Positions 2,485-4,877 of a stretch of 64,000 nt of DNA are shown here, piece by piece. The notes under the pieces are model-generated. The model saw only the letters and a program-made list of their open reading frames with translations. It made no database searches and was not told where the DNA came from. The stretch comes from Ignavibacteria bacterium (lineage in GTDB: Bacteria; Bacteroidota; Ignavibacteria; UBA10030), in NCBI GenBank assembly GCA_016873755.1, contig VGWB01000001.1:3387-67386 (forward strand), written 5' to 3'. The stretch's first letter is position 1, and each line of letters starts with the position of its first letter. The translations under genes and the position numbers were made by a program.

Positions 2485-2727
2485 ATGGACAAAGCCGAGA
2501 TCAAGAAGAGGGTGGAGAAGGTGATCGCTCAGGTGCTGAAGATCGATCCGAAGGAGATCACACCGAACGCGAACTTTGCGTTCGACCTCGGAGCGGATTC
2601 GATGCAGAGTATAGAGCTGATCGCGGCCTTCGAGGAAGAATTCAATATCCAGATGGATGAACAGAAAGCACGCGAAGTTCAGACGGTGGAGGGGGCGGTC
2701 GATTTCATTGCGGGCTACCTGAAATAA
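2485..2727 (+). CDS. Acyl carrier protein
   Basis: 80 aa and acidic, with a phosphopantetheine-attachment motif 'DLGADSMQSIELI' (conserved Ser in the DSM/DSL context). A ribosome-binding site (RBS) 'AGGAG' lies upstream. Confidence 0.8.
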   Translation: MDKAEIKKRVEKVIAQVLKIDPKEITPNANFAFDLGADSMQSIELIAAFEEEFNIQMDEQKAREVQTVEGAVDFIAGYLK

Positions 2728-2744
2728 CCAGGATGGGAGGCATC

Positions 2745-4877
2745 ATGCCTGAGATTCCAGCCGCTCGCGCAAAGGATTTGGAGCACATTTTCTATCCTAA
2801 ATCCGTCGCGGTGCTCGGCACGAATAGAGTCGTCGGCACGGTTCCGTACGACATCTTTGCCAACATCCTTCGGGACAACTTCCAGGGCATCGTGTATCCG
2901 GTCAGCCCCAAGGAACGATCGGTCGCGGGCGTTCGGGCTTACAAGTATGTGCTTGACATACCGGACCCGGTGGACCTTGCAATCCTCGTCTTCCCGAGTA
3001 CGGTCTGCAATCTTGCGCTGGAGCAGTGTGGGCAGAAAGGCGTCAAAGCGGCGATCATTATCTCGGCCGGATTCCGGGAGATCGGCGGAGCGGGAATCCA
3101 ACGTGAGGAGGAGATCAAAGCCATCGCGAAGAAGCATAACATCTCCTTCATCGGTCCCAACTGTCTTGGCGTTATCAATACCGATCCGCTCTCACATCTC
3201 AACGCATCGTTTGCGCGCAAGATGCCGGCTGAAGGCAATATCGCGTTTCTGTCGCAGAGCGGCGCGCTGTGCACCGCGGTCCTGGACTATGCACAGGCGA
3301 AGCACATCGGTTTCTCAAAATTCGTCAGCTTCGGCAACAAAGCGAACATCAACGAGCTTGACTTGATGCGGTATCTCAAGAACGATCCGAAAACCAAGGT
3401 CATTCTCGTCTACCTCGAGGAGATCACCGACGGAGCCGGCTTGATGAACGTTGCGCACGAGATAATTACTGAGACGGGCAAACCGATTCTCGTCCTGAAA
3501 TCGGGCAGGACACGGGAAGGAGCTGCTGCGGCTGCTTCCCACACCGGTTCGCTCGCGGGAAGCGACGAAGTCTGCGACGCCGCACTGAAGCAGGCGGGGG
3601 TCATCCGGTGCACAACCGTCGAAGAGATGTTCAATACTGCCATCGCGCTTGCCTACCAGCCGCTCCCCCGGGGCAATCGGGTCGCAATCATCACCAATGC
3701 GGGTGGTCCCGGTGTCTTGGCAACCGACGCGGCGGTCGCGCAGAAGCTTTCGCTTGCGACATTTTCTCCTGAGACACTCGAAGTGTACAAAAAGAGTTTA
3801 CCGGCTACCGCAAACATCAAGAATCCGGTCGATGTGATCGGTGATGCGCGCGCTGATCGATACAAGGTCGCCTTGGGAAGCGCACTGAAAGATGTCAACG
3901 TCGACGGCGTGCTGGTGATCCTGACGCCGCAGTCGATGACCGACATCGAAAACATTGCTCGCGAAGTCTGCAACACGATCGGCCAGTTTGACAAGCCGGC
4001 GTACGCCTCCTTCATGGGTGAAAAGGACGTCGCCGCGGGCATTAGCATACTTCAGCAACGAAGCATTCCGCACTACGTGCTGCCCGAGTCTATGTGCAGG
4101 GCTTTCGCGGGCGCGCTGTTCTTCAAGAACTACCGCGAGATGAAGCCGGAGGATCTGCAGGTGTTTTCGAGTGTGCAGAAGGAGAAAGCAGGCTCGGTGC
4201 TTCAGGGCGCGCTGAACGCCGGAAGGAAATATCTCCCTGAGGAAGAATCTGTGAAGATTCTCGAAGCGTATGGCCTTCCCACGTTGCTGAGTGGTCTTGC
4301 GAAATCCGGGGCGGACGCGGCGGCCATCGGCGAGCGCATCGGTTTCCCTGTCGTCATGAAAGTCGTGTCGGACGACATCGTGCACAAGTTTGACGTCAAG
4401 GGCGTCGTTCTGGACATTCGATCGCGGACACAGGCGGAAGAAGCCTATGACTCGATCATCAGCGACATTGGCAAGGTCATGCCTGACGCGAAGATCAAGG
4501 GGATCTATGTCCAGAGGATGGTCACGAAGGGCGAAGAGGTCATCCTCGGGGTGAAGCGTGATCCGTCGTTCGGAGCGGTGATCATGTTCGGTTTGGGCGG
4601 CCTGTTCGTGGAAGTCTTCAGGGATGTAAGCTTCCGGGTCGCGCCCGTCGGGCCGCGATCGGCCTCGGAGATGATTCGTGAAATCAAGGCGTACGACATG
4701 CTGGCAGGAGCTCGAGGGAAGAAACCTCGCGACATCAGGAGCGTGGAAGAATGTATTCAACGTCTGTCGAAACTTGCGCTCGATTTTCCAGAGATCAAAG
4801 AACTCGACATTAACCCTCTGATTGTCAACGACGAGGGGGGCGGCTGCTACGTGGCAGATGCACGCATCATGCTCTAA
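2745..4877 (+). CDS. NDP(ADP)-forming acyl-CoA synthetase family protein with CoA-binding, succinyl-CoA-synthetase-like and ATP-grasp domains; resembles acetyl-CoA synthetase (ADP-forming) with fused alpha and beta subunits
   Basis: The N-terminus has the CoA-binding Rossmann motif 'KSVAVLGTNRVVGTVPY'. Histidine-loop regions '...GAAAAASHTGSLAGS' follow. The C-terminal ATP-grasp region reads 'GFPVVMKVVSDDIVHKFDVKGV'. An ATG at 2733 is in frame, but 'GGGAGG' sits 6 nt before the ATG at 2745, so 2745 is the preferred start. Confidence 0.8.
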   Translation: MPEIPAARAKDLEHIFYPKSVAVLGTNRVVGTVPYDIFANILRDNFQGIVYPVSPKERSVAGVRAYKYVLDIPDPVDLAILVFPSTVCNLALEQCGQKGVKAAIIISAGFREIGGAGIQREEEIKAIAKKHNISFIGPNCLGVINTDPLSHLNASFARKMPAEGNIAFLSQSGALCTAVLDYAQAKHIGFSKFVSFGNKANINELDLMRYLKNDPKTKVILVYLEEITDGAGLMNVAHEIITETGKPILVLKSGRTREGAAAAASHTGSLAGSDEVCDAALKQAGVIRCTTVEEMFNTAIALAYQPLPRGNRVAIITNAGGPGVLATDAAVAQKLSLATFSPETLEVYKKSLPATANIKNPVDVIGDARADRYKVALGSALKDVNVDGVLVILTPQSMTDIENIAREVCNTIGQFDKPAYASFMGEKDVAAGISILQQRSIPHYVLPESMCRAFAGALFFKNYREMKPEDLQVFSSVQKEKAGSVLQGALNAGRKYLPEEESVKILEAYGLPTLLSGLAKSGADAAAIGERIGFPVVMKVVSDDIVHKFDVKGVVLDIRSRTQAEEAYDSIISDIGKVMPDAKIKGIYVQRMVTKGEEVILGVKRDPSFGAVIMFGLGGLFVEVFRDVSFRVAPVGPRSASEMIREIKAYDMLAGARGKKPRDIRSVEECIQRLSKLALDFPEIKELDINPLIVNDEGGGCYVADARIML

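Follow-up and report, generated by a model that had tools for sequence, protein, structure and literature searches.

Within a 64,000-nucleotide stretch from an Ignavibacteria bacterium (GenBank assembly GCA_016873755.1, contig VGWB01000001.1, positions 3,387 to 67,386 of the forward strand; this whole stretch is hereafter termed the window), a gene for an acyl carrier protein (ACP) is immediately followed by a gene for a fused alpha/beta enzyme of the NDP(ADP)-forming acyl-CoA synthetase family (ACD). This adjacency recurs in homologous loci far beyond chance and is not incidental. The pair is part of a module for amino-sugar metabolism that also includes glucosamine-6-phosphate deaminase (NagB), either a DUF4954 protein or an alternative bacterial GlmU (alt-GlmU), and often an HMGL-like enzyme resembling isopropylmalate synthase (IPMS). 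The parts come from known superfamilies; the combination of a dedicated ACP, an ADP-forming ligase or the Pta-AckA pair, NagB and a beta-helix protein is new and widespread. We hypothesize that acetate would be carried on the dedicated ACP and that a beta-helix transferase would N-acetylate glucosamine phosphate made by NagB, a reading to which we assign a probability of roughly 0.45 on the basis of gene content and a predicted structure.

Pairing of the ACP and ACD genes

An earlier, sequence-only reading of the window described an ACP with an intact phosphopantetheine serine 17 nt upstream of a fused ACD, placed in a sugar locus. The coordinates, the PF00550 match and a direct reading of the spacer agree with this description (Table 1), and genes for a ROK kinase, two NagB proteins, NanE and a GH38 enzyme indeed surround the pair. 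The same reading gave the ACD a length of 711 amino acids. The fused enzyme was correctly recognized, but that length counts the stop codon; translation from the ATG at 2745 yields 710 amino acids, the exact length and sequence of database protein P0001, which comes from an Ignavibacteria metagenome-assembled genome (MAG). An alternative in-frame ATG at 2733 would yield an ACD of 714 amino acids.

Homologous loci were collected in two scans, and the neighbourhoods examined extend 10 kb to either side of each match. A DUF4954 alignment searched against 185,579 species genomes yielded 80 loci, which were annotated by phmmer with the window proteins, and a scan of metagenomes with the ACP family alone as the seed likewise yielded 80 loci. 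In two independent scans, an ACP gene was found beside the ACD gene for all 62 full-length ACDs of the subfamily. Look-ups seeded with the ACD returned an ACP alongside in six of six cases. For three of these, at 84, 71 and 67% identity (Ignavibacteriales, Omnitrophota, KSB1), a gene for an 80-amino-acid PP-binding protein lies directly 5' and DUF4954 lies 3', with the remaining neighbours otherwise unrelated. Three more, at 65-67% identity, gave the same result, including one in which a transposase follows the ACD and the ACP-ACD pair is intact. An IS200/IS605-type Y1 transposase (10229-10648) lies between ACD and NagB in locus L170.

Adjacent pairs in the order ACP-ACD number 87, with a median spacer of approximately 30 nt, and those in the order ACD-ACP number 5 (loci fetched with other seeds); spacers are usually 10-40 nt long. 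The ACP-seeded scan identified a module neighbour in all 72 informative loci, namely ACD (57), HMGL (11), alt-GlmU (7) or NagB (1), and four of the seven ACPs adjoined by alt-GlmU have HMGL on their other side. The remaining 7 ACP-seeded loci lie on contigs that end no more than 162 nt past the ACP. No ACP-like open reading frame (ORF) is present within 3 kb of four distant ACDs (36-41% identity) from haloarchaea, a cyanobacterium and Sinorhizobium in PLSDB. In Halomicrobium, the genes on either side of a distant ACD without an ACP (L178, 2046-6158) encode a GNAT acetyltransferase and a 'phosphotransacetylase family protein'; this different ACD neighbourhood served solely as a negative control.

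According to the record labels, the ACP-ACD operon is carried by at least nine phyla: Ignavibacteria, Bacteroidota (Bacteroidales, Rikenellaceae, Prolixibacteraceae and Cytophagales), Gemmatimonadota, Spirochaetales, Calditrichota, Planctomycetales, a Chloroflexia MAG, Omnitrophota and KSB1. The ACD of the Chloroflexia MAG (L070, 6980-9136) is broken into at least six ORFs, reflecting either a pseudogene or assembly errors.

The window ACP is of the PF00550 phosphopantetheine type (E = 1.7e-15), with Ser39 residing in the sequence DLGADSMQS. It scores 79.6 bits on TIGR00517 (cut-off 70.45), and module ACPs as a group score 78-80 bits, compared with 129 bits for E. coli AcpP. All module ACPs, whatever gene adjoins them, share the signature DLGA(D/E)S-x-(Q/K)-S-x-EL(V/I)A(A/G)FEEEF-x-IEMDE, and the helix-II motif of the window ACP, DSMQSIELIAAFEEEF, is not the canonical AcpP motif DSLDTVEL(V/I)M. 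When 1.84 billion protein representatives were searched exhaustively with the window ACP alone as the query, the short single-domain ACP matches formed two motif classes, the module type and the canonical type. The one canonical-class ACP that was looked up (P0442) resides in an acpP-fabF-rnc context.

These features bear on the possibility that a housekeeping AcpP merely lies upstream of the ACD by chance. The TIGR00517 score above threshold and the DLGADS motif are consistent with such an origin, but the distinct motif class is not, and the expected genomic setting is absent. No fab genes were found among the scanned ORFs of the window (Pfam on the larger ORFs to 59 kb), and no second ACP was detected there by phmmer with the window ACP and E. 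coli AcpP as queries against all six-frame ORFs. No fab family recurs around the module, where 140 flanking ORFs represent 132 different Pfam families, and fab adjacency typical of a housekeeping AcpP was seen neither in the window nor in the 72 informative loci. Moreover, synteny of the ACP with ACD, HMGL, DUF4954, alt-GlmU and NagB is conserved in approximately 150 loci of many phyla, and two or more ACPs are present in some loci (L033, L046 and L093). Caldithrix abyssi, from the module-carrying phylum Calditrichota, has a classical plsX-fabH-fabD-fabG-ACP-fabF cluster (PMC5317091). Because of the synteny, the motif class and the absence of fab flanks, we consider an incidental AcpP extremely improbable. 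Judged from its sequence and setting in the window and the homologous loci tested, the module ACP is a dedicated, non-fab carrier with its own family, distinct from the fatty-acid AcpP. The proposal in the sequence-only reading that the ACP is dedicated to the synthetase is therefore upheld by the specific, conserved pairing, the separate signature and the lack of fab genes in the window or recurrently in the flanks. That reading had also named the circumstance that would overturn it, a housekeeping AcpP with incidental adjacency, and this was not encountered in the 64-kb window or in the homologous loci.

Genes for an AcpS-type phosphopantetheinyl transferase (PPTase) are convergent to a DUF4954-ACP-HMGL(-NagB) unit in L010 (7787-8197), L012 (8120-8524) and L020 (6373-6804), in each case on the minus strand, and AcpS adjoins the module only in these three Ignavibacteriales loci. 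Pfam searches revealed no PPTase among the larger window ORFs to 59 kb. The assignment of a small conserved gene 3' of DUF4954 as a PPTase was not supported.

The window ACD contains all five subdomains of its family (two CoA-binding, CoA-ligase, ATP-grasp and lid). Its significant Pfam matches are CoA_binding_2 (PF13380), Succ_CoA_lig (PF13607), Ligase_CoA_2 (PF19045) and ATP-grasp_5 (PF13549). The same five subdomains, fused in the order 1-2-5-4-3, are found in the known ACDs of Nitrosopumilus (Nmar_0206, 8WZU), Ca. Korarchaeum (ACD1, 4XYL) and Pyrococcus, and the phospho-His swinging loop and the ATP-grasp His motif are likewise shared. The best solved relative is 8WZU, a 4-hydroxybutyrate-CoA ligase (ADP-forming) that aligns end to end with 591 bits and approximately 50% identity. 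The loop SHTGSLAG of the window enzyme aligns with SHTGAL of 8WZU, whose H256 is placed on the swinging loop in the corresponding paper, and HKFDVKGV in the ATP-grasp domain aligns with HKSDAGGV; both motifs are retained across the subfamily. Unlike the known ACDs, members of this subfamily always occur with a dedicated ACP, reside in a NagB/DUF4954 operon and carry a Gly-rich loop of their own in the CoA-binding domain. This loop, G(A/T)(N/T)(K/R)V-x-GTVP, is present in 62 of 62 ACP-linked ACDs, whereas the same position reads GAS…G in three aligned solved relatives (8WZU, 2CSU and 9Y43).

The ACD-like region of Pat/PatZ proteins also aligns over the full length of the window ACD (350 bits to 9IT0). 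However, 9IT0 has no His-Thr-Gly at the aligned position, whereas the catalytic His loop of the window ACD is intact. No GNAT domain was matched in the window protein, which ends with its ATP-grasp domain at residue 710, and a Pat/PatZ-like protein acetyltransferase was rejected for want of this domain.

Exchangeable genes around the carrier protein

The module can be written as ACP, ACD or Pta-AckA, NagB, and DUF4954 or alt-GlmU, with or without the IPMS-like enzyme. Its recurring gene orders include ACP-ACD-(NagB)-DUF4954 with or without HMGL-NagB, Pta-AckA-DUF4954-(NagB)-ACP, DUF4954-ACP-HMGL, HMGL-ACP-NagB-DUF4954, NagB-altGlmU-ACP-HMGL, AckA-altGlmU-ACP-NagB, altGlmU-ACP followed by an AAC(3)-like N-acetyltransferase, and ACP-HMGL alone. 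Among the 80 DUF4954-seeded loci, 49 have NagB no more than 400 nt away from DUF4954, 42 include an ACP and 11 an HMGL-like gene. The ACD occurs in 26 of these loci; each of them has an ACP, and none has AckA or Pta. AckA was detected in 11 loci and Pta in 9, and 9 of the loci with either gene also have an ACP. Thus, 26 loci carry the ACD and 11 carry Pta/AckA, with no overlap, and Pfam confirms the PTA_PTB and Acetate_kinase assignments. This mutual exclusion suggests that the function needed at this position is the interconversion of acetate plus ATP with an acetyl thioester plus ADP and Pi. The Pta-AckA versions come from Planctomycetota, Rhodothermales and KSB1, and in these the ACP adjoins DUF4954 or NagB rather than Pta.

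A second exchange involves DUF4954 itself. The alt-GlmU proteins score 312-351 bits on TIGR03991, 'alternative bacterial GlmU' (cut-off 225). They occupy the same slot as DUF4954 between the acetate enzymes, the ACP and NagB, and the two are never found together. For example, L174 (1-3199) encodes AckA, alt-GlmU, ACP and NagB, which mirrors Pta-AckA-DUF4954-(NagB)-ACP, whereas L173 (1-2246) encodes an alt-GlmU-like protein, an ACP and a homologue of AAC(3)-type aminoglycoside N-acetyltransferases. Profile comparison with hhalign revealed no detectable homology between alt-GlmU and DUF4954, suggesting displacement by an analogue and not by a homologue. The NagB-altGlmU-ACP-HMGL versions reside among envelope genes (PlsY, GT4, a MraY/WecA-like gene and Kdo kinase). 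Because GlmU is strictly anabolic, the presence of NagB beside alt-GlmU argues for the aminating direction. The sequence-only reading held that the ACP-ACD arrangement is not associated with amino-sugar catabolism. This statement does not hold, given that the pair is systematically linked across phyla to NagB and DUF4954 or alt-GlmU; the link is to amino-sugar metabolism, and its direction is probably anabolic.

DUF4954 was modelled with AlphaFold2 (AF2) from 59 homologues (pLDDT 80.9, pTM 0.83). The predicted structure consists of a long left-handed beta-helix (LbH), an insertion made of helices and a C-terminal domain that is also helical, and it appears to adopt the fold of GlmU/LpxA/LpxD-type acyltransferases. 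Its closest matches are GlmU, LpxD and LpxA, all amino-sugar acyltransferases, two of which take acyl-ACP. No relative in the PDB was found by sequence, and Pfam gave only a sub-threshold LbH_EIF2B match for the hexapeptide-repeat signature (PF00132). Indeed, DUF4954 has no significant sequence similarity to LpxA, LpxD or GlmU beyond faint LbH Pfam matches, and it differs from them in its size (approximately 660 amino acids), the helical insertion, a conserved unmodelled region of 70 residues and the lack of a nucleotidyltransferase domain. The putative carrier of the donor group also differs, being a dedicated ACP and not AcpP. The most conserved stretch of the protein, residues 286-354, reads TVTHHKSTLLIAG…NAGSGSNQSNHMYKLGPVHQG…ERG-x-KTGSFSY and includes three invariant histidines (His289, His290 and His314); a fourth, His354, lies at the C-terminal edge. 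The stretch may constitute a cofactor site, a substrate site or an oligomer interface.

The DUF4954 family comprises at least 8,000 clusters at 90% identity, and its matches in PLSDB are only stand-alone Bacteroides genes. The one concrete mention in the literature places the gene next to lgt in Treponema pallidum. Our literature searches found nothing on ACP-ACD pairing, DUF4954 function, TP0851, an ACP in amino-sugar metabolism, or acetyl-ACP with glucosamine-6-phosphate. A second, very divergent DUF4954 paralogue adjoins the module in a KSB1 locus (L005, 6549-8591, minus strand) and in a Phycisphaerae locus (L033, 13172-15397, minus strand); the former shows 23% identity to its window counterpart and lacks DUF6819.

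The HMGL-like protein is best matched in NCBIfam by the nifV homocitrate synthase family TIGR02660, with 115.5 bits against a cut-off of 462.9, and other families fall far below their own cut-offs. Its best PDB match is citramalate synthase 3BLE. Sequence evidence places it no more narrowly than in the DRE-TIM/HMGL-like superfamily, and it cannot be equated with a specific IPMS, citramalate synthase or homocitrate synthase equivalog.

In seven loci of the Prolixibacteraceae type (L032, L045, L081, L085, L097, L103 and L129), a NagB-like protein of approximately 780 amino acids precedes ACP-ACD-NagB-DUF4954, and a ROK kinase is also upstream in all but L129. The one copy of the NagB-like protein that was scanned (L097) has a weak match to a PIG-L deacetylase domain.

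A possible acetate-dependent route and its alternatives

The proposed route would begin with the activation of acetate at the cost of one ATP to yield acetyl-S-ACP. Loading might occur through direct action of the ACD (or Pta) on the phosphopantetheine thiol of the ACP in place of CoA, or by way of acetyl-CoA. NagB, operating in the aminating direction, would convert fructose-6-phosphate and ammonium to glucosamine-6-phosphate, and DUF4954 would move the acetyl group off the ACP and onto the amino group of the sugar, thereby pulling the unfavourable NagB equilibrium. The product, an N-acetylglucosamine phosphate, would feed envelope amino-sugar synthesis. The IPMS-like enzyme would probably draw on this acetyl-ACP as the donor in a Claisen condensation, or might instead supply it. 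The observations that favour this scheme are the strict ACP-ACD pairing, the identities of the ACP neighbours, the slot equivalences, the DUF4954 fold, the gene content of L173, the divergence of the ACP and the Gly-rich loop of the ACD.

The net chemistry proposed is that of the GlmS-GlmM-GlmU pathway and of eukaryotic GFA1-GNA1, which proceed from fructose-6-phosphate to glucosamine phosphate and then to N-acetylglucosamine phosphate. Likewise, the pairing of genes for an aminating enzyme and an acetyltransferase recalls glmU-glmS. In the module, however, the ammonium-dependent and reversible NagB would replace GlmS, DUF4954 or alt-GlmU would serve as the acetyltransferase, and the operon includes a carrier protein and an acetate-activating enzyme, an arrangement for which literature searches found no description.

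An acyl hand-off between the ACD and the ACP is plausible. The idea that the ACP thiol is a direct substrate of the ACD is more tentative, and we give it somewhat less than an even chance. The strongest form of the proposal is doubtful: the ACD would be the first ADP-forming acyl-ACP synthetase and, with NagB and DUF4954 or alt-GlmU, would establish a GlmS-independent route to N-acetylglucosamine phosphate from ammonium and acetate on a carrier.

Several points weigh against the scheme. The roles assigned to the module are predictions, known here from genes and models. We know of no NDP-forming ligase that uses a carrier protein, and the ACD retains all of its CoA-ligase domains and is approximately 50% identical to a true CoA ligase, 8WZU. 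Acetyl-CoA is normally plentiful, and the scheme does not explain why an ACP should be required. Nor does it give the IPMS-like enzyme a clear role, and in the AF2 model of DUF4954 only the best conserved stretch (residues 286-354) was left unmodelled (pLDDT < 50). The catabolic flanks in the window (GH38, NanE and ROK kinase, with no NagA seen) also fit a catabolic role. Finally, ACD identities of 65-85% across phyla suggest that the operon spread as a unit, so that the pairs are not independent events. Many ACP-ACD pairs probably descend from one transferred operon, and the independent evidence for the pairing is the number of different gene orders.

Among the alternatives, the one that we judge possible though unlikely is that the ACD is an ordinary, CoA-only acetyl-CoA synthetase (ADP-forming) that functions in fermentative ATP formation or in acetate activation. 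The ACP would then depend on a different module enzyme; DUF4954 or alt-GlmU, for instance, might act as an acetyl-CoA:ACP transacylase or use the ACP in some other way. The position of the ACP before the ACD would reflect inherited operon order and not a direct pairing of enzyme and substrate. The complete CoA-ligase domain set and the 591-bit match to 8WZU are as expected for such an enzyme. Furthermore, CoA-dependent Pta-AckA replaces the ACD in Planctomycetota, Rhodothermales and KSB1 with the ACP not beside Pta, and ACP-HMGL and altGlmU-ACP units exist without a nearby ACD. Metagenome papers also routinely read the ACD of Ignavibacteria as an acetate-forming, ATP-yielding enzyme (PMC7509429). 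This explanation is difficult to reconcile with the 100% co-occurrence of the ACD subfamily with an ACP at short spacings, with the subfamily-specific Gly-rich loop in the CoA-binding domain, and with distant ACDs that lack a nearby ACP. That Pta-AckA can take the place of the ACD does not discriminate between CoA and ACP as the thiol, because PlsX, which is related to Pta, can use ACP thioesters, and Pta could in principle serve a carrier thiol. An improbable alternative draws on citrate lyase and malonate decarboxylase, in which a carrier (CitD/MdcC) is acetylated by an adjacent ATP-dependent ligase (CitC) and then used by a lyase or synthase with a TIM barrel. By analogy, the ACD would be an acetate:HS-ACP ligase that primes the carrier, and the IPMS-like DRE-TIM enzyme would be the main user, condensing acetyl-ACP with a 2-oxo acid or cleaving a hydroxy-acyl-ACP to acetyl-ACP; NagB and DUF4954 would merely be co-regulated. 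At least 20 loci, with several gene orders and sometimes without DUF4954 (L135, L158 and L159), have the ACP and HMGL genes side by side, and by sequence the HMGL-like protein comes closest to synthases of the Claisen type, for which an acetyl thioester is a substrate. The likeness is nevertheless functional only. The CitD/MdcC carriers bear a phosphoribosyl-dephospho-CoA group whereas the module ACP is a PF00550 phosphopantetheine protein, CitC is AMP-forming whereas the module ligase would be ADP-forming, and the CitE barrel contrasts with a DRE-TIM IPMS-like enzyme. Membership in the citrate-lyase/malonate-decarboxylase carrier systems was rejected on the basis of the PF00550 carrier and the ACD-family ligase. 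In addition, a CoA-transferase-like subunit is missing, HMGL genes are not found near most ACP-ACD-NagB-DUF4954 operons, and the tightest pairs, NagB with DUF4954 and the ACP with beta-helix transferases, would be left unexplained.

A catabolic scheme would couple deacetylation to energy conservation. DUF4954 would move the acetyl group of N-acetylglucosamine-6-phosphate (GlcNAc-6-P) to the ACP thiol in place of NagA, the ACD or Pta-AckA would convert it to acetate and ATP, and NagB would remove the glucosamine-6-phosphate. Every gene is used in this scheme, which fits the neighbouring ROK kinase, NanE and GH38 genes and the lack of a NagA gene among the scanned window ORFs, as well as the tie of the module to ATP-yielding acetate enzymes in two non-homologous versions. 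We estimate, however, that amide hydrolysis yields approximately -10 kJ/mol versus approximately -32 kJ/mol for thioester hydrolysis, and that ATP formation by this path would cost approximately +20 kJ/mol under standard conditions and would be only marginal even at favourable concentrations. Biosynthetic alt-GlmU fills the DUF4954 slot, and some operons already have a PIG-L-like deacetylase fusion (a weak match). Energy-conserving deacetylation of GlcNAc-6-P was rejected as the main model on the grounds of thermodynamics and of alt-GlmU in the DUF4954 slot, and we regard it as very improbable.

If the strongest form of the proposal is correct, its GlmS-independent path would operate in Ignavibacteria, Bacteroidota, Planctomycetota, Gemmatimonadota, Spirochaetota and several candidate phyla. 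The acetylation route that we favour would, if correct, give a function to DUF4954, a family that includes a gene retained in the minimal genome of Treponema pallidum, and a second, non-lipid role to phosphopantetheinyl carrier proteins, in core carbohydrate metabolism. An NDP-forming ligase or Pta acting on a carrier protein would be a new activity, none having been described. NagB and 'acetyl-CoA synthetase (ADP-forming)' are routinely read as catabolic or fermentative markers in MAGs of these phyla, and this practice would be partly wrong if the module is anabolic.

Gene layout and other features of the window

The two NagB proteins of the window are paralogues with 63% identity, one encoded after the ACD and the other after the HMGL-like gene. 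This duplication recurs in the same order in L001 and L008, and the HMGL-NagB order is kept in L001, L008, L012 and L020.

Table 1. Genes and spacer of the module region, with positions given in window numbering
Feature	Position	Strand	Basis or description
DUF4855-ROK kinase fusion	207-2306	+	Pfam/NCBIfam scan
ACP, 80 aa, phosphopantetheine Ser39, pI 4.5	2485-2727	+	PF00550 and TIGR00517
ACP-ACD spacer, 17 nt, GGGAGG ribosome-binding site	2728-2744	+	Direct sequence reading
ACD, fused alpha/beta NDP(ADP)-forming acyl-CoA-synthetase-family enzyme, 710 aa	2745-4877	+	ACD domain set
NagB-1, glucosamine-6-phosphate deaminase/isomerase, 268 aa, module-linked copy	4895-5701	+	TIGR00502, 393.9 bits (cut-off 236.9)
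DUF4954 + DUF6819 protein, 662 aa, putative amino-sugar(-phosphate) N-acyltransferase	5904-7892	+	Predicted left-handed beta-helix, helical C-terminal domain
HMGL-like DRE-TIM (IPMS-type) enzyme, 460 aa	7926-9308	+	PF00682, 9.5e-21
NagB-2, second glucosamine-6-phosphate deaminase, 270 aa	9328-10140	+	TIGR00502, 423 bits
NanE	10236-10976	-	Pfam/NCBIfam scan
GH38 alpha-mannosidase	10977-14090	-	Pfam/NCBIfam scan

The DUF4855-ROK kinase gene lies directly 5' of the module. In the full contig (L167, with the fusion at 453-2612), the gene upstream of the fusion encodes a hydantoinase_A/BadF-type ATPase. A free-standing DUF4855 gene immediately precedes DUF4954 in L014. Despite the presence of NanE, a ROK kinase and two NagB proteins, no NagA-type GlcNAc-6-P deacetylase was found by Pfam among the scanned window ORFs (1-59000). 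Scans for riboswitches, promoters and terminators over 1-15 kb yielded nothing informative.

Further into the window, positions 14421-24704 encode a secreted repeat protein of 1866 amino acids, then an ORF of 182 amino acids and two tandem caspase-like (Peptidase_C14) proteins (20625-23003 and 23040-24704) with CARDB/Glucodextran_B or DUF4384 domains. A sodium:solute symporter (24853-26613) is followed by an Amidohydro_3 protein (26286-28400). A chorismate-synthase-like reading frame at 43700-45429 is split across two frames and has the N-terminal motif GESDA in place of GESHG, which we take to be the motif expected of chorismate synthase. The split frame may represent a pseudogene or a mobile-element insertion, and it is followed by an HNH endonuclease gene (44899-45429).

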